DNA of 61,181 bases, filler included, from Dugesia japonica (taxonomy: Eukaryota): the NCBI GenBank assembly GCA_001938525.1. It is 6 parts of 6 records of this genome, joined end to end, with 100 filler letters (N's around TTAATTAATTAA, not from the genome) between each part and the next. Parts side by side here need not be neighbours in the genome. Positions count along the whole stretch, not along the records: positions 9,400 to 20,637 come from MQRL01544515.1; 5 more parts are not named here. One strand, 5' to 3'. Positions within the stretch are counted from its first letter, which is position 1; each line of letters begins with the position of its first letter. The position numbers and the translations under genes are program-made. The notes under the pieces were generated by a model, which saw nothing but the letters and a program-made list of their open reading frames with translations, did no database searches and was not told the origin of the DNA. This document shows positions 7,201-60,113 of this stretch, piece after piece.

Positions 7201-8690
7201 CATGGGTATCTAACCTTTGACTGTTTGTGGGCCAAATTGCAAACAAAAAAAATTTCTATGCCACACATAAAATTTATTAGGGAAAAATAAAAAAGGATTT
7301 GTGTATTTCTATTAAAATTAAAAGGTTTGTATATAGTTCTTTAATTTGAGCAATGTATGCATAGATACGTACATATAAGTTTTAAAATAATAAAGGTTTC
7401 GTTTTATTTAATTTGGTTTTCATAAAAAATGGGAAAAATCACTTTAATGAGAAGGATGTATTTTTTTGCACAAGTAATTCAATATCGGGTTCAATAGACG
7501 AATTTGCTATTATTAATGCATATTCAAGATGTTTGTCAGTGAATTTTATCCTATTTTTGCTTTTTGCATGTTTCATTTTTGAAAATAATTGTTCACAAAT
7601 ATAGGTACTGCCAAAAGCTGAGAACATTCATAAAGTATGATTATGAAAATTAGGATATTTGTCGCGTGGTATTTAATCCTTTAAAATTCTAGTAATGAAA
7701 TATTTCCAAATTTGTCTTTCAGTTGAATGTCACTTTGCAGTTCAATGCATTCCATTTGAAGATACGTTATTTATATTAAGAGAAAATGGGGTAGAAAATG
7801 TTTTAAAATACTCTTCATTTTTATGAAAATCTTGGAATCTACTTTTAAACTCTTGAATTAAATTAAAAATTAATACAACATTTTTTTCATAATAATTAGA
7901 ATCCATAGGCTGACGTGCAGCCAAAGTACTGAAATGTGTAAAATCGTTTATTTTTATCTGATTGCGCAAAAAAAATTTACTTTTTTCAAATTTTATTACT
8001 GTCTGAAACAAATTGTTTACAAATTGATTTTTTTCGTTGAAGTCTCAAATTAAAATCATTCAAATTTTCTGTAATGTCCACTAAAAAACCTAAATCTAAA
8101 ACCCAATCTCTGTCTTCAAATTCAGTAACAGCTTTTCCTTTTGTATTTATATCTATTTTATTTCAGTTCTCAAATTGTAAATTCTTTTGAGCAATTTTCC
8201 TTTACTGAGCCATCTTACTTCTGTAAAATAAATAACATCTGCAAATTCAGTGTCCATTGCTTTAAAAATTCCTGGAATTGTCTATGATGAAATCTTTTTG
8301 ATCTTATAAATTTAATGGTTTTTATAATAACGCTTACACACTTTCCATTTTTAAAAATTTTCCACATGATTGCTCTGACGTATAATACAATGATGGATCA
8401 TCAAGATTATATTCCCGGTAGCAACAGCTTCATTATGAACCATTTTAATGAGTCCTCCTTTTTACCAACCATTGCAGGTGCTCTATTGGTTATGATAGCT
8501 GATAAATATTTTATAGACAAGGAAAGCATTTGCATGGTCGTTTTTAATGCATCAAATAAATCTGTAGACGTGGTTGTGTTTTCTAAAGATTCTAAAGCAA
8601 CCATTTCTTTAGTGATGTTATAATTTTCATCAATTCCTGGGATAAAATTCCTAATTGTGCCGTATCGGAAGCATCAGTACTGTCGTCTAA
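7201..8690 (-). mobile_element. hAT Buster/SPIN-type (GTF2IRD2-like) transposase remnant with one terminus
   Basis: LDDSTDASDTAQL, TNRAPAMVG, YFTEVRWLSKGK, FGSTYICEQLFSKMK motifs; terminus CATGGGTATCTAACCTTT..GTGGGCCA at 7201 preceded by nnnTAnnn-type target GTTTAAAC (7193-7200). Confidence 0.92.
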
Positions 8691-9299: not shown

Positions 9300-9399
9300 N
9301 NNNNNNNNNNNNNNNNNNNNNNNNNNNNNNNNNNNNNNNNNNNTTAATTAATTAANNNNNNNNNNNNNNNNNNNNNNNNNNNNNNNNNNNNNNNNNNNN
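9300..9399. other. Artificial contig-joining spacer (44 N + TTAATTAATTAA + 44 N)
   Basis: Six-frame-stop 12-mer at 9344-9355 inside a 100-nt N block; identical block recurs four more times. Confidence 0.97.
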
Positions 9400-10125: not shown

Positions 10126-10392
10126 TCAGGAATTTTGGAAATATAATGATATGCGCTGGAATATTTCTAGAAAACGATTTTTATGAATTGAAAAAAAATT
10201 TATAACCCGAATAGGATAAATTTTAAAAATTTCAAAATCTTTCAAAAGGTTAATATGGATTTGTGCCAGACATCTATAACCTTCAATATATAATTCAAGT
10301 TCTTCAGGCTTGTATTCATTAAAATGCTTGTTAAAATCATTCCAATCTATTTTCTTTTCACTCCAAACTAATATTTTATTTTTTTCTTCCAT
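10126..10392 (-). CDS. Short orphan ORF (88 aa) in the virus-like cassette
   Basis: ATG-started, uninterrupted ORF with globular-looking composition, co-oriented with neighbouring ORFs; no family recognised. Confidence 0.35.
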   Translation of the reverse strand: MEEKNKILVWSEKKIDWNDFNKHFNEYKPEELELYIEGYRCLAQIHINLLKDFEIFKIYPIRVINFFSIHKNRFLEIFQRISLYFQNS

Positions 10393-10937
10393 CTTTTCAT
10401 AAAAGTTTTCAACACACTTAATGAATAAAATAATATTTTAAAAGTAAATAATTTCTATAGAAAATTAATTTATAATAAAAAATTTTAATTACAACACAGG
10501 TAGGATCCTTGAGCAAATCTAGAAAATTGCTTTTAAGACTATCTTTTAAATCACTATCCATTCAACAAATGTGAATATTTTATATCCGAAAATGTTTTAA
10601 ATATTTGCAGTTTTTTAAAAATATTCAAGTATTTTAAACAAAACAAAAAATAACCTTGAAAAAATATTTAATTTTAATTATATTTAGCTCAAAATTTTGT
10701 GCAATATTTAGTAAGGTAAATATATATTAACTTTCAATATTATGCTCTATTATGTCTATCAGTATTTTTCAGTCAAATTACNNNNNNNNNNNNNNNNNNN
10801 NNNNNNNNNNNNNNNNNNNNNNNNNNNNNNNNNNNNNNNNNNNNNNNNNNNNNNNNNNNNNNNNNNNTATCAAGTAATGCATATTTAAAGTTAATGATAA
10901 TTTTCAAAATTTTCAAAATGATGAGTTTTTGTTGGAT

Positions 10938-11165
10938 TTAGATGCAAGTTGGTTTCTTGGAAAGAGGGTGAGTGGGGGAAAATAATATACCTAATAGGGG
11001 AATCATGAAGGAAATAATTCCTCCAGAATGTCCTTCAGAATAACTAAAAACAATACTGGTATTAATAATAAAATAAATATCACTGTTTTCGTCTAGGAAT
11101 ACGCCCTCTTCTTGTTTAATAACAACTTCTTCATAATCGGAAATTATAATAACTTTTTCAGTCAT
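10938..11165 (-). CDS. Short orphan ORF (75 aa) in the virus-like cassette
   Basis: ATG-started ORF, acidic N-half and hydrophobic C-half; no family recognised. Confidence 0.35.
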   Translation of the reverse strand: MTEKVIIISDYEEVVIKQEEGVFLDENSDIYFIINTSIVFSYSEGHSGGIISFMIPLLGILFSPTHPLSKKPTCI

Positions 11166-11340
11166 AATTTTTTAATAATAATAATTCAAAAGAAAATGAA
11201 TAAGGATTGCAATATATAATATATGTATAATAAAATACTGCAACGTAATATTTCAGTTATTTGAAAATTAAATAACTAAATTTAAATTGATATTTTTTGT
11301 ACTTAAATTGTCCTTGTTTTGCCTCCGCGTTGCGAATTTT

Positions 11341-11791
11341 CTAAGTATTTTCAAGTAAATTAAAGAAATCTGAAGTAATATTATTCACATATCCCTGAAA
11401 ATACAAATTTTTAGTCCAAGTGTTACTNNNNNNNNNNNNNNNNNNNNNNNNNNNNNNNNNNNNNNNNNNNNNNNNNNNNNNNNNNAGGAAATAACCCTGG
11501 TTTGAACAATCAGTTGACTATTCTTGCTAATTTATACAAATTTATTAAAACTCCCATATTTACGATAATTTTTAATGATTGTAATTGTAAATTCTTTATA
11601 TCATAGGGTTTCAAATCATGCAGTTCCAATGGTTTCTTACAACCCATTATTCCGCATTTTCCTGATCTGAAGAATATAATTGTATATTTGTCACTTTTGA
11701 CTTTGAATTGACATGGTTTGGCAATAGGTAAACTCATTTTCTTTGTTACTTCTTGCGTCACTTTACCTCGGTAATTAATATTGGTTATCAT
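11341..11791 (-). pseudogene. Compact TATA-binding-protein-like gene (~150 aa, two TBP repeats), disrupted
   Basis: MITNINYRGK..YTIIFFRSGKCGIMGCK (TBP LIFxSGKxxxTGAK)..LQLQSLKIIVNMGVLINLYKLARIVN*LFKPGLFP (YEPELFP), 58-nt gap, then VTLGLK; in-frame TGA at 11510 and a probable frameshift near 11410. Confidence 0.8.
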
Positions 11792-12277
11792 AATTAATGA
11801 ATTTGCTGAGATACTTTTGGGGATTATTATCACAATAAATCATCAGTGCGTGAGTTTGAAACAATTGATTTTAATAAACATAATAATCCCAGTATATTAT
11901 CGTTATAATTTTTCATCTTATATATCTTAATATGTTTACTATAAATAAAATTATATTAATAAATATGCTGGGTTGCTAGGCTTTTTTATGTTGTTTTAAT
12001 ATTCGATTTTATTGCTTTTAATTTCATTCTCTTAATCATAACTGCTTTCTCTTTCGATTATTTGTACTGTCCGGGGGATGACACCTAACAACCACAGAAA
12101 TTTTTGGTACTCTCTCTAGTAACACGATCCCCCTTTTCCCGGTTCCAGTGGGACTACGCGGTATCCAGTCTTAGTTTTCAATTTCGTTGAAGTCTGACTC
12201 TCAAATTGTGGATGTTATTGTTCAATAATATACTCTTTGAATACAACACTTTATGAATAAACTTTATTTCATAACAA

Positions 12278-12649
12278 TCATTCGTTGATATTAATAATGT
12301 CTTTTTCTTGGTTGATTTCTTTGACTGATTTAGATACTTGGGTAAATGTGCGAACGGTGGATATCAGCACTCCTTCCCGATCAGCATACGTCTTGATAAT
12401 ATCGGCCAAAGCCCGGCATGTATGCGTTAGTGCCAGCTCTCTTTCTTTCATCTTGTCCATTTTATCCCTGAGCTGTAAATTTCTTTGCTGTAACTCCACG
12501 ATCTCACTTTTTAATTTTCGCTGTATGGCGAACCGTTTGGCTTTAATGTCGGTCATAGATGTATCAGTGAGATATAGCATTTGATAAGTATTCTTAGATA
12601 AATAATTTATTAAGATGTAAAATCGTTCATTAGTTAACCAGAACTTCAT
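12278..12649 (-). CDS. Coiled-coil orphan ORF (123 aa)
   Basis: Open ORF, raised GC, basic stretch plus heptads (KAKRFAIQRKLKSEIVELQQRNLQLRDKMDKMKERELAL). Confidence 0.55.
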   Translation of the reverse strand: MKFWLTNERFYILINYLSKNTYQMLYLTDTSMTDIKAKRFAIQRKLKSEIVELQQRNLQLRDKMDKMKERELALTHTCRALADIIKTYADREGVLISTVRTFTQVSKSVKEINQEKDIININE

Positions 12650-12786
12650 AAGTTAACTCATTATAGCTTAAGGTGAAATTTATCTCTAATACTTTAAACA
12701 GAAAATTAAGACCATAAATTTATTAACTAAAATTATATTGCTGATTTCACAAAGATCACACTATTGTTTCCACAATATCTACTGTC

Positions 12787-13184
12787 TATTCCAAAGGTGT
12801 AAGCACTTGCTGGAGCACTGTTTCAACCATACATGCTAGTCTTTCCGCCTCGCGTTGTGTTGTTCTCATGGACTGAATAACTATTTGCTGCTGCTTGGCG
12901 AGTTCTGTTACTCTTATTAACAATGTTACTAGTTCCTTTTCACGCTCCTACTTCCATCTAGTAATCTCTGTCACTTGTAATTGATGTTGGCTTTCCTGGT
13001 GTTCGACGTGTATCTGCAGAGCATTAATCCTCTTTATCTGTTCGGCGAATTGCTGTCGTTGACTCAATATCTCCTCTCGCATCTCCGTTATCTTGTCCTC
13101 CTTGACCTGTAGCTGTGCCTGAGTAATCCACCAAAGTTCGACGTCGGTTCCCTCCGTGGTCACCGAATCCCACAACGGTGGCAT
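12787..13184 (-). pseudogene. Coiled-coil orphan ORF with one internal stop
   Basis: Frame continues past the TAG at 12948 as EREKELVTLLIRVTELAKQQQIVIQSMRTTQREAERLACMVETVLQQVLTPLE*; Q/E-rich heptads, GC well above background. Confidence 0.55.
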
Positions 13185-14336
13185 ATTGTTACATGGTGTT
13201 GTCTCGAATGTATATCCGGCNNNNNNNNNNNNNNNNNNNNNNNNNNNNNNNNNNNNNNNNNNNNNNNNNNNNNNNNNNNNNNNNNNNNNNNNNNNNNNNN
13301 NNNNNNNNNNNNNNNNNNCTCAACATAAATATCTCTATTCAATTTATTTTAATTTTAAAGAATGAAATGGGTGTTACCACGAGCTCTGATCGATTAAAAA
13401 TCACTCGTCATTACGGATGAGGTTGGGCTCCCGATTTCCAATCACAATTCATAAGCAATTCATCTCATATGCCGCTTAATATATCTCATTGATTGATATG
13501 CTGCATCTTGATGACCATGTTTGTATTCATATATTATTTGTGGAGATAACCATCCTCCTCCGAATAACGAATGATCCATCGGCCAGCTCAAACTATTATA
13601 AAATTTTAGTTGCATAAATCTATAAAACAAAACTAATCATTATAAAATTAAAGTGATAATATTTTCATAAACATTTGCAATAATTATAGACAGATAAATC
13701 GTTAAATATAGAATAATTAGACAAGAACATGTAATAGTATGTCAGGTCGAATTCAACCACCACCCTCTCAATCAAACTACTAGTCTCTCAGTATCATAAC
13801 GGTTACATTAACACTTCATTACCAAATTACCAAATTATTACAAATCGCTTTCTACGTTTTCACCATCAATTCATCATTCATATATCATGATATCATCTCT
13901 CATCTCTCATTATCATTGTCATTATTAGGAATCGATAACATCTCTTCTCATAATCATTGTCATCTTTCGTAATCATTAATATCTTTAGTAATTTAATGGC
14001 GTAATGGTGGATGATCTCGAAATGAAATTACATTCGGATCTCTGAGTACTGATGTCCATCGTTGCCTGCGTGACCAGTCAACGAGGAACACCGTCTTAGT
14101 CTTCTGATCATTTAGAAATACAAATAAAATTACTTTGTTTTCGTTTGATAATCACTTTCTTAAAATGGCTTCTAGGTTCTTTCAACTATAAGAAAACTAG
14201 CGCTCAACGTTTTAAGAGATTGAGTTTTTTGTGTGTTTTTTTGTCTAAAATCGTTTGCTTTTATACTGAATTTTAATGTCACATTTTGACAGCTACTNNN
14301 NNNTGCCACTTGAAATTTTTAGAAAACGCAGCGAAT

Positions 14337-16072: not shown

Positions 16073-16605
16073 TCAAAATTTTAATGTTAAAATGTCATTC
16101 GTGATTGATTCCATCTCATATTCCAAATAATTGATAAAATCTAACAATGATTTAGTACGATAACAAATCTCTTTACAAAGATGATCTTTCATTATATCAT
16201 TAAACACTTTGTTGATCATATATCCCATTTCAAAATATGGACAACTTGTCGGATTCTTGTCACATGTTCTCATGTGATTTTCTATCAAACCCAACTTATC
16301 TGTGAATTCACAATATTTACTTCAACATTTCGCAACAATTTCTGAAAATCCAATGTTAGTTGGATAATTAATAACACCATCTTTAATTTTGACCAATGTA
16401 TGCAACTGCAAAAAGCATTACAAATTTTCCAAATCATCTAATTATTAACTTTATTCATTAATTGAAATTTATTTTCTTTGAAATAAATTTCCACATAGTC
16501 TCAAATATTTCATTTGTCATAAATAAATGATGTCTGAAAAAACAAATCATCGGAAATGCAAACAGTTTTCACAAAATTTCATCATATTATCAGTGTAATC
16601 AATCA
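16073..16605 (-). pseudogene. TRAF/SINA-type zinc finger gene with probable decayed RING
   Basis: KC*SKYCEFTDKLGLIENHMRTCDKNPTSCPYFEMG..MKDHL followed by a helical tail; upstream FCENCLH..LCGNLF resembles a frameshifted RING. Confidence 0.6.
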
Positions 16606-20637: not shown

Positions 20638-20737
20638 NNNNNNNNNNNNNNNNNNNNNNNNNNNNNNNNNNNNNNNNNNNNTTAATTAATTAANNNNNNN
20701 NNNNNNNNNNNNNNNNNNNNNNNNNNNNNNNNNNNNN
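20638..20737. other. Artificial contig-joining spacer
   Basis: TTAATTAATTAA at 20682-20693 flanked by N runs. Confidence 0.97.
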
Positions 20738-23649: not shown

Positions 23650-24900
23650 TTTTACAATTGCAAGTATTACGAGAATAATTGTTGGACGTAACCATTGACC
23701 GTTTTTCGGAATTCATTTAAAATAAAAGCTTCGATCAAAATTTGTTTGATTTAATATTACAATAGTAATTTATTTTTATTAAATTTTAATTGGTTAATTT
23801 TAATTTTTATTCAAATTTAATTATTTAATAATTATAAATTACATTGATTTTAGGATTGTCTTTAATAAGTAATTCTTCGTGTATTTTTCTATGAAGTGTA
23901 GAAATATAGNNNNNNNNNNNNNNNNNNNNNNNNNNNNNNNNNNNNNNNNNNNNNNNNNNNNNNNNNNNNNNNNNNNNNNNNNNNNNNNNNNNNNNNNNNN
24001 NNNNNNNNNNNNNNNNNNNNNNNNNNNNNNNNNNNNNNNNNNNNNNNNNNNNNNNNNNNNNNNNNNNNNNNNNNNNNNNNNNNNNNNAGTGACATTTTTC
24101 TTATTGTATATATTTTTACCATCACAAATGCATTTGAGACCACAAAAATTCTGTCTTAGTTTTTGTAATTGGATACCTAAAGGTATTTGCTTTTTAAATA
24201 TAATTCTTGGATGTTGTTTGAGTTTTGATTTTTTTTATTATATTTTGCATAATTTGGTTACATTTCTCATTAATAAAAGGTAATTTAATTACTGTGTTTG
24301 TCTTTTGTTTGATTATATTTAATTTTGTATTCGTGGATAAATACTTCTTTAATTACACCAATTATCTGGCTGATGGTAGTATTACTACTCCAAGGTAATA
24401 TATTTCCACTGTAAAATGGTTGCATATATAACTGGGTAGTTAATATTTCACCAGGTTTCTTTTGGATTAAAGTGTCCAAAAAAGGAATCTGAAAGTCAAT
24501 TGATTTCTCCAAAATAAATGTAATGTTATAATTTATTCTGTTCGCTAATTCTAAAATGTTCTCTAGAAGAGAATTAGTTACAAAGAAAATCTAAACTATA
24601 GATGAATTTTCTTGTTTGATTTAAAAATTATTTCATTTTCAATGAAGGTCATAAAAATTATCGCTATAATTGGAGATAAATTAAAAAAAGGTTTTTAAAC
24701 AAAAAGCTGGTCTAGCAATTGGTAATAATTTTTACTGCTGAATCAAGTTATGAGTTTATAAATTGATAGGAATCTATAAATTTGATAGCTGGTAATTTAG
24801 TTTTATGCTCTATTAAGCAAAGAGACCTTTCCATTGTTGTTATAATGCAATTCAGACTCAATTGTGGGAATTTATTTATTCCATGTGAGGCATACATACT
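23650..24900 (-). mobile_element. Penelope-like element, 5'-truncated: RT C-terminus, linker, (gap), 3' terminal repeat
   Basis: LSPIIAIIFM, IPFLDTLI..TTQLYMQPFYSGNILPWSS; sequence matches the copies at 31945-32580 and 37555-38030. Confidence 0.9.
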
Positions 24901-25099
24901 TCTGGTAAAGAAAAATCTTCTTTTATCATGAATATTTATTAAATAAACAATTCGATAACACAGTTTCTAAATAAATTTACAATCATAACTTTAGAATAAT
25001 TTCAATAAATTTACAACGGAAATAAAACTTAGTAAAATGGCCAATATTCCAAAATAAAGTAATTATGGCTAAAAGTTTTTACCAAGCTTTCTTTTTCAA

Positions 25100-40271: not shown

Positions 40272-40370
40272 NNNNNNNNNNNNNNNNNNNNNNNNNNNNN
40301 NNNNNNNNNNNNNNNTTAATTAATTAANNNNNNNNNNNNNNNNNNNNNNNNNNNNNNNNNNNNNNNNNNN
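40272..40370. other. Artificial contig-joining spacer
   Basis: TTAATTAATTAA at 40316-40327 flanked by N runs. Confidence 0.97.
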
Positions 40371-41992
40371 NAATATCCTCCTTTCTACTAGTATTATGGG
40401 GGAAAATTCCTCTCAGCTTTCTAGCAATTGATTACTTGAATATTTCGATTCGATTTTTGTGATATTTGAGTTATAAATGTGTATATTCAATGAATATCAA
40501 TATTTTTATTCTAATTAATATTAATTTTTGTTCTATATGTAGCGGCACCTCGTGATTATACAAATAGGTGGGGCTAAGCAGAAAAAAACTTGAATAGTAG
40601 TTTTTAACAGACATTTTTCATAAAGCATTACAATTTACAAACAACATACGCTTATAAAAACATGAGAAAAAGCACATTTATACAAATACTCAGCTTTTCT
40701 ATTTTCTATCTGCCCAAATCTCAAAAAATCTATCATTGGTTTTCAAAAAAATTTATATTTGCTTATCTTAAAGCTTAGATTGTGCAAAAATATTGGTATA
40801 ATGCAGGATATGTCCGTCATAATCAGCTAACGTTCGGAAATATATCNCTAGTTGACTAATCTAATATTTTAGACATTTTATATTTGATAATTAACAAACA
40901 AATTGCCAATTTTGTATCGTATTTATTAAATATTCTTCGAAATGGCAAAAAATCCGATTAAGAATAGAGAAGTTCCGGGAATAATGTTTTTGTTTTGTTT
41001 TAAATATATAAATATTGCTGTAAGAAAATACAACTTTTCTTCTAATATAGTTTGTGATCAGGTCGCAACACCACTAAATATATAAGCTGAGATTTCAGCA
41101 CGAAGACTGTAACTATTGGGTAAAATTTTACTTTATTCCTATTAAATTATCGGATTCTAAATCTCAAATGATGGTTCATTTTAGGATAATAATAAATTTT
41201 AAGTAATATAACTACTAATATTTTCAAAAAGCGTTATTTCACGACAACTAAAATTTATACTGTTTACCGATGTACTAAATTTGTTATGCATTACTATCAT
41301 TGTGAGAAAAAGTTAAAAAGTATGTTTCAATTTTATCAGAGACAATTAATTTAATGAAATTAAAAAATACGCTATTTAAATATCCAACTTAGTTTTTCAG
41401 TTTCAATTTTTGGTTGACATTGTGTTGTAAATAAGAGCTATTTGAATTAAAGAGAATATTTACTGTAAGCGCATATTGAGTTGCTTTAGGATTGTATTTG
41501 GTATTAATAATTTATTTGTATATTTGTGCTATTAAATTTTAAAGAATAATCTGTAATATCTACATCTATTATTTGTGATTTATTAGTAGTATTTTCCATT
41601 ATTTTAAATTCTGAATTAAGCACATATTTCAGTATAAAGTGAAGTTTCTGGTTATTACAAATTTTTGGATCTATCAATATTATAAATAAAAGTTTGTATT
41701 GGTAATTTGTATTGAGTGTTAACATACGTCACATCATATGGTCACGTCATATTCGACAGTAACATATTACAGTAACAAAACTTTTAACGCAAAATTTTAT
41801 TTAAATGAAGTACTGCCACTCTTAGAGATTGGAATCTTCAATAATTATTTTCGTTCAAAAATAAACTAAATCAAATCAGTATTTATACTGATTTTACATA
41901 CGCCCTCAACCACACAATTTAATTACTCACATAAAAGAATACACAAAGTTTCATATAAACAAAATCATTTTGTTTAAACATATTCCAGAATT

Positions 41993-51659: not shown

Positions 51660-51681
51660 AATATTTGTGTCACTTTTTTAN

Positions 51682-51780
51682 NNNNNNNNNNNNNNNNNNN
51701 NNNNNNNNNNNNNNNNNNNNNNNNTTAATTAATTAANNNNNNNNNNNNNNNNNNNNNNNNNNNNNNNNNNNNNNNNNNNN
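51682..51780. other. Artificial contig-joining spacer
   Basis: TTAATTAATTAA at 51725-51736 flanked by N runs. Confidence 0.97.
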
Positions 51781-52868: not shown

Positions 52869-55800
52869 CTATCTATGTGGTTTCTGAGTTATTGGCTCTG
52901 TTTCTGCTAGTTTACATCTATTGATTACAAATATAGTAGGATCATTATTTTTATTTTTAACTATTTGTAAATTCGTGTCCGTTACTTTTACTACATCAAA
53001 GCGTCCTTTAAAATATCTAGCTAGATTGTTTGTTAGACCTTTCTTTGAATTCGGAGTCTTTATTCGCACTTTATCTCCAACTTTAAATTGATGTGGTTTT
53101 GCATTTCTGTCGTAGTAATCTTTATACTGTTCTTGTTTGAATTTTATTCTCAATCCAGTTTGTTTATACACTTCCTGTAGTCTTTCCTGAATTTTCGTAA
53201 CATATTCCGGATTGTCCGTATATTGTAACACAATAAGTTTGAATGTGACACATCGGATTATGATTCTCTCTCAAGTACATTAAATAGAATGGTGAATATC
53301 CAGTAGCTTCATTTTCTGTCGTGTTGTTGGAAAATAATGCTGGTTTAAGGAACAAGTCCCAATCATTTTTATTTTTGTTTACAAATACTGATAATCTGTT
53401 ACATAATGTGCGGTTGAATCTTTCCACAAGACCGTCTGACTGTGGGTGGTATGCTGAAATGTTTATTTTTTAGATGTTAAACATTTCATTAACTCTTTTA
53501 ACTGTTTCGCTTAAGAAATTTCTACCTCTGTTTGATAGCAATTTTTTGAGTGCGCCATATTTAAAAATAATTTTTTATACCAACAATTTTGCGATTACTT
53601 CTGCAGATTCGTCTTTTGTGGGAAATGCTTAGGCCCACTTTGTAAAATAATCGCTGAATACCCAAATATGTTTGTTAAATTTTATTGTAGTTGGTAATTT
53701 GCTTAAGAAATCCAGAGCGCATATTTCCATTGGTGGGCTTGGTACTGGCATTGGATGAAGTGGCACTTTTGTTTTTGTCCCAGTATTTTTTCTAGTTGCG
53801 CATATTGAACAAGCTCTACACCATTGCTTTACATCATCTTGCAAATTTTGCCAAAAATATTTTTGTAATATTCTAGATGCTGTTTTACTACTTGATAACG
53901 TCCACCAAGAGCACCATGATGATATTGAAGAAGTAACATCTGTTTTAAGGAATCAGGTACAACCCATAAGTTTCTCCCATGTTATCATATACAAGTAAAT
54001 CCTTATATATTTTATACTTTGTATTTTTGTTAAGGTGGTTTCGTATTGATTTGATGTTTTTATCTTTCTTTTATACATCCGAGAAAGTTTTATCATTTAT
54101 GCCTTCAGTTATTATAGGCATTGATTTTGTTGTTTCCACCTCTTTTATGTTAGGAATTCTTGATAGTGCATCGGCATTTCTGTTGGCTCTTCCAGGTTTG
54201 TATTTAATTTTTATATTCATATCTTAGATTTTCATAGCCCATTTTAATATTCGGCTGGATGTATCCTTGTTTTTCCATAAGCCTTCAAGTGGTTTATGGT
54301 CTGTTTGTATAGTGACCTCTGTTCCATAAATGGTCGGTCTAAATTGTATAAACGCATAAATGTATTGCGCAACACTCCTTTTCTATTGTTGAATATCTAG
54401 GTTCTGCTTCTTTTAACGTTTTACTTGCGTATGCAGTTACGTTATCTTTGTTTTTCTCTTCATGTCCAAGAACTGCTCCGACTGCATATTCACTTGCATC
54501 TGTCATGATTATAAATGCTTTGTCAAAATCTGGGTATCTCAATATTGGCGCTGTTATTAATTTTTCAATTAACGTATTGAAAGCGTTTTGCTGATTGTTT
54601 CCCCATAATTTTTGTAATTTTAATGAATTTTCATTGATTTCTCGGTAATTATTACGCCTTTACTTTCTTCTTTAGTTTTCAAACCTTTTGTCAGTTTCAC
54701 TAGTGAGGCAGATATATTACCAAAATCCTTTATAAATCGTCTATAATAATCGACTAGTCCTTTATAACTTAGGAGTTGTTGTACTGTTTCTTGTATTGGC
54801 AAAGTTTTTATTGCTTCTATTTTATCTGGATTTGGTTGCAAACCTTTTGAGGAAACTATACGACCTAGAAATATTACCTGTTCTTCCGCCCATTTGAATT
54901 TTGTTGGCTTTAGTTTTATATTTGGGTTTTTGTAATCTACACTTCATAGTTTATTAAATGTTACTCGAATGATTCTGATGCGATCAAAATGGCATCCATA
55001 TAGATAATTACATGTTTTACATCTATCAAAACTGTGTTCATTAATCTCTTAAATGAAGCTGGTGCGTTTGTTAAATCGAATAGCATTCTTGTAAACTCGT
55101 ATAAACCATCTTCTGTTACAAATGCAGTCTTTTCTCTATCCTGTAATAACACATTTAGACCATAGAAATGTTTGCTGGCGTCGAATATAGCAAACCATAA
55201 TGCTTTACTTAATTTGTTAAATTGCTCCTTGTATCTTGCTTAGTAACATCATTTAATTTTCGATAATCTACGCACATTCTGATATCTCGATCTTTTTTCT
55301 ATGCTGGTACTACTGGTGATGCCCATGGAGAGAAAATTTGTACTATTATTCCATTATCTTTTAATTCTTTTATTTGTCACTTGACTTCCTCTCTTAATTT
55401 ATATGATGCAACATATGGCCTTTTCCTGACAGGTTTGGCGTTACCAGTGTCACTGGCATGTTGTATTATATCTGCTTCACCAATATCGAATTCATGTTTT
55501 GCTAAAACATCCTAATATTTATCTATTACTGCTTGTAATTGTTTTCGCTCATGCGCTGTTAGATTGCTATTAGTTATTTTAGTCTTATCTGTTTGTTTAA
55601 TTCTGTTTGTTTAGGTTTAATTTGATCGTAAATTAGTGTTTCCTTTACTATTTGCTTTTGTTTTATTGGATTATTTTTATTAAATGTAATTTCATTTATC
55701 TCACATTTCTCGTTTTTTACATGTAGTTTACCTAATTTCATACCTTAGAAAAGATTAACATCTTGATTATTATAATTGGCGATTCTAATAGGCATGGTTT

Positions 55801-56350
55801 CCTTTTTTGGAACAAAACATTCGAGTACTATTGATATATTAAATTTTTTCACTAATTGATTATTTGGTTCAAAAAAATAGATATTTACGCTACGGAACCC
55901 TAATTTTACAGGCATTATACATTCACGTGAATATTCTATTTTTGTATTTGACTTTAAGTATAAATCATTTTTTGCTTTTTCATCATTTGTGGGGGGTGAT
56001 TTTGATAATTTATTATTTTGTAAATATATAACATATCCTGATAATTTTGACAGTAAATCCATTCCCAAAATTTAGTCTTGTACCTCTTGGTCTACGACTT
56101 GGAATGAGTGTTGTATATTTTCATTTTCTAAGGTAATATTGCAATATATTATATCCTTTATGGCTCGTGAATGATTTTAATTCCTCTGATAGGCTAGGAT
56201 CAAGATTATCTTTTTTTTTTGTTAAGAAATGTCTTTAATTATTAAGCATGCTGATCCGGTGTCTATTAATGAAGGTATATTATATTCATTTATTGATATT
56301 ATCATTGTGGGTGTGGGAGTATCTCCATTTATTACATATATCTCGTTTGA
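52869..56350 (-). mobile_element. pol: Gypsy pol pseudogene (protease - RT - RNaseH - integrase)
   Basis: LIDTGSA (56252-56263), SPWASPVV, RMCVDYRKLN, EKTAFVT..LYEFTRM, YMDA (mutated YxDD), TDASEYAVGAVL, NADALSR, CRACSIC, HPQSDGLVERFNRTL, FKGRF. Confidence 0.97.
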
Positions 56351-56499
56351 TTTTTGAGGTGTGGTATTTCTTATTAATTTTTCGTTTTCAAGGTTTGATT
56401 TTAATTTATTGACTTTATCTGTTTCTGATATATAAGGTTTTATTGTCGTAATTATTCAGTTCTATATTCTCATCTCTATTTGATAGATCGATTGTATAT

Positions 56500-57440
56500 G
56501 TTTGATTTTGTCTTTCTAATTTTCTGATTTTATCATGGTGTTTTTGCATGATTAGATGTTTTACAATAAATGTACATATGCATGCTGCTAGTTTTCATGT
56601 TGTACCAAATACTGAATGCAATTTTCTTAATGATAATAATTGATGGCATGCTAATTTTAACAAAATAAACAAATAATGTATTAACAAAAAAACGAAAATA
56701 CACTGCCTATTGCTTACGCTTTGCCTAAACATTTATCGATAAAACTTTGTATGACTCTTTTGCAGTGATCTACGTGCAATAATTACTCGAAGTTGAAATC
56801 GTCTGCTTGGCTTCCTTTATGAATTCTATCGATCATTATTGATATTATTTTTTTTATTACTATAGGAAACAGAACATGCTTTCTGGATTTTTCTTTCTTT
56901 CTGAGTAAATATGCCGGTATTTTCCATGTTGTATTGTCTGTCAAATACCATTTTCCTTCAGAGTTCCATCATCTCTAATGTTACTGATTTTTGTGCTGTT
57001 TCACAATCCGAAGCGGTAATCCAAACGTTGTCGTTTATTTTGTATAATGGGTCGAGAAGATTACTACGTTTGTTCATTTCTTTGGGTTTATAATTTTCAT
57101 CTGTTAGAATTCGTGTTACTGGTAATAAAAAGACCTTTTTATTATTATGTATCACTGGCAGTTCATTTGTACATTCCGGATGATCTGTTAAAGTAACTAT
57201 TGCTAATTTACATTTGAAAGTTACCAATGCTTCACCCACAATTCTTCCAAAGGTTCCTGCTTCTTCGAATAATAATGGTGTCATCTCGAATAGTAGCAGC
57301 TAATGCCATTTTTGTACTTAACCGTTCTCTATTTATTTTACAGTCACTTGATATTGTTTCATCATATAATTTTTCCATTTGATATATCAAATTGTGATAT
57401 GCAAAATCAAGTTTATTGTTTAAATATGAAACTTATTTGA
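56500..57440 (-). pseudogene. env: Class III fusion glycoprotein (herpes gB / chuvirus G-like) envelope, C-terminal half, located between gag and protease
   Basis: YLNNKLDFAY..DCKINRERLSTKMALAA..GTFGRIVGEALVTFKCKLAIVTLTDHPECTNELPVIHNNKKVFLLPVTRIL..PLYKINDNVW..NTGIFT..LFP, then a hydrophobic AIGSVFSFF membrane region. Confidence 0.8.
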
Positions 57441-57499
57441 TGTCCAATTTTTTCTGCTTGATCTTTAGAGCCTTTGATGAGTTCATTAGATATATTTAA

Positions 57500-59617
57500 A
57501 CCGTTAAAGTTGGTTTTCTTTACTGCGCCTGGTGGTCTACCTCTTGATCGTCTTGTAGTTTTCTCATTTGAAGGTCCTGGTTCATCTGTATGTCTTGATT
57601 TCTTTGGTTCTGTATTTCCGTTATATTTTTTAATTGAACTGATTGACTTGTATTACCATTTCTTATTTGAGCTTGTTGATTATCTACTGGAGATTCTGGT
57701 TCTCTAGATATTTTCTTCGGTGGAATATGTATCTTTTCGTTTTCATCTTTTATATCCTCTAATATATCTTGATCCAGAAGATCGATTATTCCATTCATCG
57801 CTTCCTGCTGTCCCTCAGATAATTTATTTACTATCTTGAATTTCACTTGGTTATCGTTTTCAGGGATAATTCCGTATTCCATTATTCTTTTATTTTCAAT
57901 TAACTCCTGATTATAGAAATACAATTTTATCTCGTCGTCTTCTACTAATGTTATCGGTCACTTTGCTCTTATTATCTTTCGTAGTTTTTCCGTTTTAGTA
58001 AGCGCATATGTGCTTATTATTAGAGCTTTTATATTACAACTAACTGTGGATGCTTGTATTATTATGGGTTTCTGCCACTGTGTTGGCTTTAACAAATTCG
58101 CTATAATTCTTTATTAATTCATTTATTAATTTATGACTCTCATCGAATTCTCTTCTGCCTTTTACTTTTACTAAGGAAATTATTAATGTTTTCAGTTCGC
58201 GATAGCTTATGAGATATTCAATTATATCATTTAGGTATTGTATCAATCTAAGTGCGTTTATATTCTGTTTAGTCATTTCATGCTTTAAAATTTTCCAACA
58301 TCGACTTTTGTTTGCTTTCATCTACTTCCTCACCTAAATCTACTTTAATTGATTCGTAAGTGTTTATCTCATATTTACTTTTATTTTGTTGTCTTTCCTG
58401 CATTCTTTCACATCTGATGCGTAATTCTTGTAATTCCGCTCTCATACTTTCGTATTCATCGTTTTGAGCTACTTCAATAACATTTAAGCTTTTTGTCTCA
58501 GATTCAAATGATACTTCTTTCTTTATTATACTTCTGGGATCTCGCAGCTGGATTCGGCACACTCTGGCTAAGTGTCCACATTTGTTGCAGTTATAAAATG
58601 TTATCTGTTCTCTGTTATTTACTTGATCTCTCCGTTCGTTTGAGTAGTTACTGTTATTTCTGTCATTATAGTTCAACGTGGACTTATATTATATCTATAG
58701 TTTGATTCAGATTCTCTTTTAGGTCTATATCCCTTATTTTTAAATCTAGGGCTAGAGTTTTTGTAACCTCTATTATTATTCCAGATTTTCCTTTGACTGG
58801 AATTTCTATTCATATAACCTTTCCCCGGCGTATTTGTATATTCATAATAACTCGTTGGACTTAAATTTCTATTATATTAATTTTTTTTATCCATATAATT
58901 ATTTTTGCTATTATCTTAGTGAATGTGATATGCTCGTTTTATATAACCCCATTATGTCGGTTTTCTATCAGTCGGCATGCTTGTTTCTATGGCATAAATT
59001 AGTTTATCTTTAGTTTTATGATTATAATTTGTCTCAATCCTTCTGGCTTTTGTCATCAACTGTTCAATATTTTTGTACTCCACTGTTATCAGAACAGATT
59101 TTATTTTTCTAAGTTTTCTTCTCAGGAATTAATCTTCTATAACATTTTCAATATTACCGCCTTCTCCAAAGGTCATTTAAGATAATTTTTTTAAAATCGT
59201 ATAAATATTCACCTAAAATTTCTGTAGTTCCTTGCATCCTGTTTTGAAATTTTTGTGTACATATTCTTTCTACTTCTATGGGAACTTTTATAAGCTTTCT
59301 GAGCTCTTTTATTAGTTCGTTAAAATTCTTCGATGGATCTGTTAAATTTTTATAACTTTGCAGTGCAAAGCCCTTTAAATACAATGGTACCATTTAGCCA
59401 ATTCCTCATTTGTCCAATTGCATTTTATTAAACAGATGGACATTTCTTCAAAATATTCATCGAACTCTTCGGGTTTCCTGGAATACTTTTGTAATAGTAA
59501 ATAGTTCATTTTATTTCGATCACCAAATCCAAATAAAGGAGTAATATTAAAACCATTTTCTTGTTCATTTATATTTTCGCTATCTTTACGTCCAATTACT
59601 ATGTCTCTGCTTCTCAA
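57500..59617 (-). pseudogene. gag: Gypsy gag (capsid-like, zinc knuckle, long coiled-coil/disordered extension with AT-hook-like RGRPP)
   Basis: KYSRKPEEFDEYFEE..W..LYLKGFALQSY..FQNRMQGTTEILGEY; FYNCNKCGHLARVC; RSRGRPPG near 57525-57550. Confidence 0.85.
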
Positions 59618-60113
59618 TTTATATATAATATTATCGTTTGTATCAATTGTTTGTATTCTATATTATGTTCAATTTATTTTAACTATTTGTGTTTGTGTAA
59701 GATTTTATATATTTGTAAAATTATTAAACACACAACTATATGAAGAATTTAAAATCTTTATCAAATGGAAAATATTTACCCGTCATTTTAGGTTCTCAAA
59801 GTTTCCGCAGGTTTGTATTCTTTTATTTAAACTTTATACGTTGGGTTAGGAACTATCTGTGAATTTCGTTTCAATTCACAATTAAAAATGTTTTTTCAAA
59901 ATTCAGGTTTCGTTTCAACCCTTTAAAACTGTATTACTTTTAAAGAATTTACTCGTAACTTATACAAAAGGTTTTTATCTTATCTCTTTTTATCTTATCT
60001 TATCCTTATTTTTTTTAAAATTTTATTCAAAAATCTTATATGGGAATTTTGTTTTAACTCTGAATACTCAAATACTTTTATCGAATTAATTTATAAATTT
60101 TTATAAATTGGTT

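Follow-up and report, generated by a model that had tools for sequence, protein, structure and literature searches.

The stretch of Dugesia japonica DNA analysed here (61,181 nt; hereafter the window) carries the remains of a gene for a miniature TATA-binding protein (mini-TBP). Its intact relatives, placed in Maverick/Polinton elements by their neighbouring genes, probably serve the element as a late-gene initiation factor of its own; they are predicted to bind the upstream word YATAAACR and to bring in TFIIB and RNA polymerase II (Pol II) of the host. The chances are slightly better than even that a widespread Maverick group runs a two-stage transcription programme by this means, combining one minimal, regulator-proof TBP with a private YATAAACR word and the TFIIB of the host. 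A dedicated TBP paired with a promoter word makes late-gene control in integrated Mavericks, the switching on of their capsid genes included, directly testable.

The mini-TBP pseudogene occupies positions 11341..11791 on the minus strand of the window, from an ATG at 11791 to a stop codon at 11341-11343, the family length being about 150 aa. All four TBP motifs quoted in the first-pass annotation were recovered on the minus strand, and its interval of 11341..11833 held at the stop codon but not at the start, as it is the ATG at 11791, not position 11833, that lines up with the initial Met of the intact relatives. The open 5′ piece (11513..11791, minus strand) consists of 93 codons and covers a shortened N-lobe together with strand S1′ and helix H1′ of the C-lobe. 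It is followed by the in-frame TGA that had been reported, found at 11510..11512 on the same strand, where relatives are open at the same site. A run of 58 N (11428..11485) covers strands S3′-S4′ of the C-lobe; the earlier remark that this 58-nt gap fits about 20 residues agrees with the 20 residues that relatives have there, but the gap is a run of unread letters. The C-terminal piece (11341..11427, minus strand) lies in two frames, encoding VTLGL and then helix H2′. Because 59 nt separate FP and VTLG in this copy, VTLGL is out of frame, a frame difference that holds only if the length of the N run, whether assembly gap or mask, is exact. A second frame change comes directly after VTLGL, and the C-terminal helix resumes in the other frame with 16 matches over 29 codons to P0002, the closest intact relative of the window copy (150 aa). 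With a TGA and two frame changes, the window copy is an inactive fossil that cannot make the protein.

The window copy is identical to P0002 at 75 of 102 residues. When 111 intact relatives were combined into a profile, it matched the copy at E 1.1e-32, whereas the best of five shuffled windows reached 0.62. The open 5′ piece by itself matches archaeal TBP (1mp9) at E 3.4e-4 and the Pfam family PF00352 at E 8.9e-4 (19.5 bits, under the cut-off of 22.9). In its readable part the copy deviates at 4 of 19 conserved family positions, both acidic positions of the TFIIB-binding stirrup among them, while its 13 nearest intact relatives deviate at 0-1 of those 19; four or more deviations at conserved positions also occur in 37 of 273 family members. 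The absence of an N-terminal extension and the shortened first repeat, both noted in the first pass, are traits of the whole mini-TBP family.

Intact relatives are numerous. A search with the 5′ piece of the window copy gave six candidates, all at 47-76% identity and five of them 148-150 aa long, and a five-sequence profile then gave 919 matches at E<=1e-5 among 2124 candidates, of which the best 120 of 919 were inspected. At E<=1e-10 the same profile found 239 cluster representatives, the lower ranks of which include cellular TBPs. P0002 matches 35 solved TBP sequences (best E 1.2e-10), and its predicted model (pLDDT 95.4) superposes on TBP with Z 13.6 and an rmsd of 2.5 Å over 148 residues; in a Foldseek search with this model the top 44 matches at E<=1e-3 were all TBP among the matches listed. 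Intact locus proteins score 56-65 bits against PF00352, above the 22.9 gathering cut-off, and intact family members share about 20% structural identity with cellular TBP. The intact relative is thus modelled as a two-lobed TBP saddle, in line with the TBP homology first proposed from motifs, and this fold excludes the alternative that there is no TBP fold at all. The 273 full-length members have a median length of 154 aa and carry no extra domain. Across 38 non-independent pairs of intact genes the median dN/dS was 0.175, pointing to purifying selection on intact mini-TBP genes.

Residue counts refer to the 273 full-length members among 348 collected, with yeast numbering transferred through an alignment to 1rm1 and profile alignments. 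Three of the DNA-intercalating Phe residues that the first-pass annotation had singled out are kept, at the equivalents of yeast F116, F190 and F207 (272, 271 and 273 of 273, respectively), but ungapped alignment puts another residue than Phe at the F99 equivalent; a Phe lies 3-4 residues earlier in 208 of 273 members. In the acidic E-x-E stirrup of the C-lobe, position E186 is Glu in 256 members and Asp in a further 12, and E188 is Glu in 271; these two glutamates are described as TFIIB contacts in excerpts of PMC7221094. The same excerpts place the binding of TFIIA, TAF1, Mot1 and Brf1 on helix H2 of the TBP N-lobe (PMC7221094). In the P0002 model the N-lobe has no strand S2 and no helix of at least four residues between S5 and S1′, and the S5-to-S1′ linker, the seat of H2, has a median of 21 residues in the family versus 33-34 in six cellular TBPs. 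The N-lobe of the family is shortened and has lost most of helix H2, the helix that in eukaryotic TBP bears a basic patch for these four partners.

Other positions hold conserved, non-canonical residues. Asn stands at the V71 position in 241 of 273 members (V71 being aligned by eye), Arg at V122 in 271, Met at T124 in 273 and Asn at or beside L205 in 270 (L205 shifts by one between aligners). The N159 and V161 positions are each occupied by Ser or Thr, the I194 position is Arg in 242 members, and the T215 position also holds a conserved non-canonical residue. We take the side chains at these positions, partly from TBP-DNA structures, to face the DNA. Judged by its residues, then, the DNA-reading face of the family is more polar than usual and altered yet conserved, not decayed. 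The three positions mutated in the altered-specificity variant TBPm3 include I194 and L205 (PMC1636458, in excerpt). As a predicted natural form with altered specificity and independence from regulators, mini-TBP would be of use in work on DNA recognition by TBP.

A metagenome scan yielded 78 loci, of which 72, all partial contigs, are family members. The genes neighbouring TBP include a protein-primed family B polymerase (pPolB; PF03175 with Endonuclease_7), an rve-chromo integrase (PF00665), an A32-type ATPase (Pox_A32), an adenain protease (Peptidase_C5) and a PLA2-like gene. For example, locus L057 carries both PF03175 and PF00665, while across the 72 family loci pPolB was found in 7 and integrase in 15. 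A neighbouring gene of 410 aa is a lead for a capsid-like protein, since the double-jelly-roll family PF21738 is found in 22-30% of the members of the Atlas clusters closest to it (score 0.98; recognition 2287); a single-sequence fold gave no usable model (pLDDT 30.3), and comparison with PDB and PHROGs gave no match. At least one Maverick hallmark gene was present in 33 of 72 loci, rising to 24 of 32 when only loci of >=3 kb are counted and to 12 of 15 for those of >=5 kb; no hallmark gene was found in the other 39, which are mostly short but include 3 of the 15 long ones. Conversely, L084, recovered through its ATPase alone, also encodes a TBP. Because these neighbours make up the gene set of Mavericks/Polintons, the intact relatives of the window copy are assigned by gene content to such elements. 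The divergent, element-borne TBP proposed in the first pass is supported, with a Maverick/Polinton and not a large DNA virus as the carrier. No TFIIB was found among the 69 locus proteins scanned with Pfam.

Several other features of these loci merit mention. The fragment L084:1-3823 (PLA2, TBP, ATPase, zinc finger and rve integrase) is filed in a Bacteroidota MAG, likely as eukaryotic or viral contamination. Two unannotated gene clusters, C2 (22 loci) and C14 (7 loci), usually adjoin TBP and have no YATAAACR (e.g. L014:1788-2135 and L029:2934-3512); they share a C-terminal strand pattern by eye and could be single-strand binding proteins or cofactors. A leucine-rich-repeat cargo gene occurs in five loci (e.g. 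L011:1918-3327 and L036:2303-3109), each time with ATAAAC upstream.

In the window itself, the Maverick context is limited to a fragmented relic of a Maverick-type pPolB (24718..25878, minus strand; endonuclease VII and exonuclease region), no Maverick ATPase, capsid or integrase gene and no terminal inverted repeat enclosing the TBP copy having been found there. The relic matches the pPolB of L007 (tblastn E 6e-31), with profile matches in three frames and a Pfam Endonuclease_7 match at E 4.8e-4. As counted along the window, it lies 13 kb upstream of the TBP copy, with which it shares the strand, and the two may or may not stem from one insertion. The ORFs flanking the TBP copy (10941-11171, 10129-10437 and 50 ORFs in 10.9-29.9 kb) gave no informative Pfam match and no match to a locus cluster. 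The window is AT-rich (~25% G+C), with many decayed transposon fragments and N runs. Among them, 52869-59662 (minus strand) is a decayed gypsy-type LTR retroelement with RNase H and an integrase zinc finger, whose env-like ORF at 56958-57299 matches Monjiviricetes_fusion (PF24664, E 1.5e-13). Fragments at 7742-8673 (minus strand) resemble a hAT-type transposase, with no Pfam support, and a Cys/His-rich ORF at 16076-16321 (minus strand) resembles a TRAF-type zinc finger by eye, with no Pfam match. Paired runs of 44 N with 12 bases between them recur every ~10-11 kb (9300-9399, 20638-20737, 29366-29465, 40272-40371 and 51681-51780).

The coding part of the window copy is highly repeated in the host. 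In two host DNA runs, 3585 and 3296 contigs fell on the tested 1735-nt stretch around the TBP copy, and summed contig depth, which is not a copy number, reached 0.8-2.8 x 10^5 over the coding part versus 67-402 just upstream; this pile-up on the coding part shows mini-TBP to be a large, divergent, multi-copy family in the host. At window position 11803, 31 contigs (run X3) and 11 reads (run X22) depart from the window sequence, so that many other copies differ in their 5′ flank just upstream of the ATG. The poly(A) RNA run X22 placed 119 reads on 11486-11833, one of them at >=99% identity and 117 under 95%, and RNA run X21 placed three reads on the TBP copy stretch. The RNA reads on the window copy thus stem almost entirely from other copies, and related copies appear to be transcribed at a low level, mostly in sense if the library is stranded. 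The immediate 5′ neighbour of the TBP copy (12040-13220, minus strand) is another, distinct repeated element; its ORFs look coiled-coil and gag-like by eye and have no Pfam match, and within it 12066-12181 has very high summed contig depth.

A quick tree of 71 rows (with just two NCLDV rows among them, and with two eukaryote rows poorly trimmed) grouped the window piece with P0002 and P0003 (SH-aLRT 98), and these together fell within the group that holds L001, L007 and L014, all from Maverick contexts; the 49 family rows made up one side of a separate branch (SH-aLRT 94). The immediate flanks of the window copy hold no other recognisable Maverick gene and TRF2/TBPL1 sequences were left out of this tree, both of which favour a host origin, be it as a TRF/TBPL paralogue or as a processed pseudogene derived from the TBP gene. 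Such an origin is nevertheless extremely unlikely, as the window copy is nested among Maverick-context sequences, thousands of divergent contigs cover its coding part in the two host DNA runs, and it shares 76% identity with intact element-type proteins that are themselves only ~20% structurally identical to cellular TBP. Furthermore, the N-lobe TATA-contacting position, where Trp is the signature of TBPL1 according to excerpts of PMC7221094, holds Phe in 272 of 273 members and in the window copy. A single-copy host paralogue or a processed host pseudogene is therefore excluded or unlikely, and the reading of the first pass as a divergent TBP borne by an element gains from all three lines: Maverick genes around its relatives, many copies in the host and its nested place in the tree.

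The candidate binding site of mini-TBP is a recurring word, ATAAAC, that was first noticed by eye and then put to an unbiased scan of 224 de-duplicated upstream segments of 150 nt. It was the top 6-mer, occurring in 111 of 224 segments versus 20 expected, and preceded 18/18 ATPase, 9/9 capsid, 11/13 integrase and 6/7 PLA2 genes but only 6/50 TBP genes (4 expected). Its flanks are constrained as well, with Y before it in 84 of 90 sites and R after it in 87 of 90. The extended word YATAAACR, whose distance to the ATG peaks at 30-49 nt, stands before 86/101 virion/integrase genes, 0/50 TBP genes and 11/73 others, a contrast that is inflated because the 'late' gene set was chosen after the motif had been seen. 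The word is strongly strand-biased, with 14/14 sites on one strand in L057 (3.35 expected) and 12/13 in L007, and is nearly absent from pPolB coding sequence (one site in 23.5 kb). L084 has three sites, which precede its PLA2, C8-like and integrase genes by 36-76 nt. TBP genes differ from virion/integrase genes in other upstream words too, namely a canonical TATA (29/50 versus 31/101), CCAAT (13/50 versus 2/101) and TCA[GT]T (32/50 versus 33/101), words which tend towards a host-type early promoter. Since TBP genes have no YATAAACR and more often have a canonical TATA, two promoter classes are suggested. The window shows no enrichment of YATAAACR, with 7 sites on each strand, and the TBP copy has no site close by.

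The motif resembles AATAAA and often overlaps the upstream stop codon, and 45/95 sites lie within coding sequence, all of which could suit a 3′-end signal (polyadenylation or termination) or a by-product of conserved amino acids with no tie to TBP. Such an account is very unlikely when set against where the sites fall. A precedes ATAAAC in only 2/90 sites and the other 50/95 sites are intergenic. Moreover, YATAAACR is tied to the downstream ATG rather than to the upstream stop; before ATPase genes, for example, the distance to the ATG is tight (17-50 nt) and that to the end of the upstream gene loose (-1 to 329 nt). Downstream of TBP genes, the presence of the motif depends on the next gene, being found in 10/10 cases if ATPase follows but in 1/6 if C14 follows. 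Motif codons inside upstream genes are kept (17/17 versus 8/42, and 6/6 versus 15/122), and the coding sites fall in two frames with synonymous codons fixed, though only in 3/6 at the capsid C-terminus.

With YATAAACR as a promoter word, the following mechanism is proposed for the intact protein. Host TBP would transcribe the mini-TBP gene from its ordinary TATA promoter, and mini-TBP would then bind YATAAACR through its altered, more polar DNA face, preferring this word over TATAAAAG. Through its conserved stirrup it would recruit host TFIIB, and hence Pol II. Because the helix bound by TFIIA, TAF1, Mot1 and Brf1 is lost, mini-TBP would escape all four; it would not respond to Mot1 or TAF1 and would have no need of TFIIA. 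The outcome would be a cascade from early to late genes and, if so, a likely switch for virion gene expression in integrated Mavericks. The first-pass annotation had suggested that the protein could redirect or antagonise host Pol II initiation; redirection to the element's genes fits the promoter motif, while antagonism of host genes finds no support.

Part of that earlier suggestion reappears if host TBP/TFIID reads YATAAACR as a variant TATA box and mini-TBP is a decoy or antagonist that sequesters TFIIB or occupies host promoters. TATAAAC is one position off a canonical TATA box, and a decoy too would need the near-invariant TFIIB stirrup. Scans of viral_contigs found no family member and no element of its kind, four distant TBPs at most, and no TBP-less Maverick; with none found for comparison, the motif could be read by host TBP. 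A decoy role is nonetheless unlikely, in that 32/90 sites start with C and position 7 is C, that the TBP gene itself never has the motif and more often a canonical TATA, and that the DNA face of mini-TBP is conserved rather than decayed. According to excerpts of PMC1636458, selection in yeast with TBPm3 went against C at positions 6-8.

A different reader of the motif, such as an element zinc-finger protein, the product of an unannotated gene or the machinery of a helper giant virus, would leave mini-TBP with a secondary or early-gene role. Virophages use helper-virus machinery, and family loci hold several conserved unannotated genes. The herpesvirus vTBP requires five more viral proteins (PMC12529657, in excerpt). 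However, the motif is TATA-like and keeps a distance from the ATG, mostly 30-40 nt, that suits a TBP site, and mini-TBP is present in all sampled subgroups (all loci but L084 having been chosen by TBP), whereas the zinc-finger and other neighbours are subgroup-specific. A different reader is therefore quite unlikely, and mini-TBP itself is the favoured reader of YATAAACR, which would also provide a simple marker for annotating Maverick transcription units.

Mini-TBP can be set beside several known systems. Like cellular and archaeal TBP (PF00352), it is a two-lobed saddle with an E-x-E stirrup in the C-lobe and with Phe at three of the four intercalating positions, but it is ~30 residues shorter, with an N-lobe that has neither S2 nor most of H2. 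Nucleocytoviricota TBP-like proteins likewise keep the DNA-binding Phe and have lost the N-lobe regulatory patch; in these viruses, however, the first TFIIB glutamate is ~40% conserved and most encode their own TFIIB (excerpts of PMC7221094), compared with 256/273 for that glutamate in mini-TBP. Mavericks/Polintons, adintoviruses and MELD viruses share pPolB, an rve-chromo integrase and an A32-type ATPase, as well as adenain protease, PLA2X and a double-jelly-roll-like capsid gene (PMC8502044 and PMC8097293, both in excerpt), and Maverick particles have not been observed according to the portion of PMC8097293 consulted. Figure legends in the accessible part of PMC8502044, and in its preprint, mark one gene as TBP-like in MELD viruses from outside the animals and in elements akin to them; the text supplement of PMC8502044 has no TBP, and no TBP or TATA was found in the accessible portions of other Maverick/Polinton literature, including PMC8097293. 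In the literature covered, which lies outside Repbase and subscription journals, neither the mini-TBP family nor YATAAACR was found described, and TATAAAC had no occurrence among the literature matches listed.

The closest parallel is KSHV ORF24, the vTBP of beta/gammaherpesviruses, which resembles mini-TBP in its viral TBP fold, conserved Phe and more polar DNA face; the herpesvirus late promoter TATTWAA, like YATAAACR, is a modified TATA word that stands ahead of virion genes (PMC12529657, in excerpt). Use of host Pol II is a presumed further likeness. The two nevertheless differ in construction: ORF24 is a large multi-domain protein that works in a six-protein complex, does not have the TFIIB glutamates and binds Pol II directly (same excerpts), whereas mini-TBP consists of the saddle alone, at 150 aa, retains the glutamates and has no Pol II-binding domain. 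Herpesvirus vTBP and mini-TBP give weak fold matches only, and the likeness drawn here is one of function, not of sequence kinship. By analogy, mini-TBP is rather likely to work in the manner of herpesvirus vTBP rather than as a host antagonist. A virus-encoded TBP with its own late promoter is known; the novelty, in our judgement, probably lies in finding such a pairing in Mavericks. If borne out, it would represent a third viral solution, distinct both from herpesvirus vTBP and from the TBP-TFIIB pairs of giant viruses.
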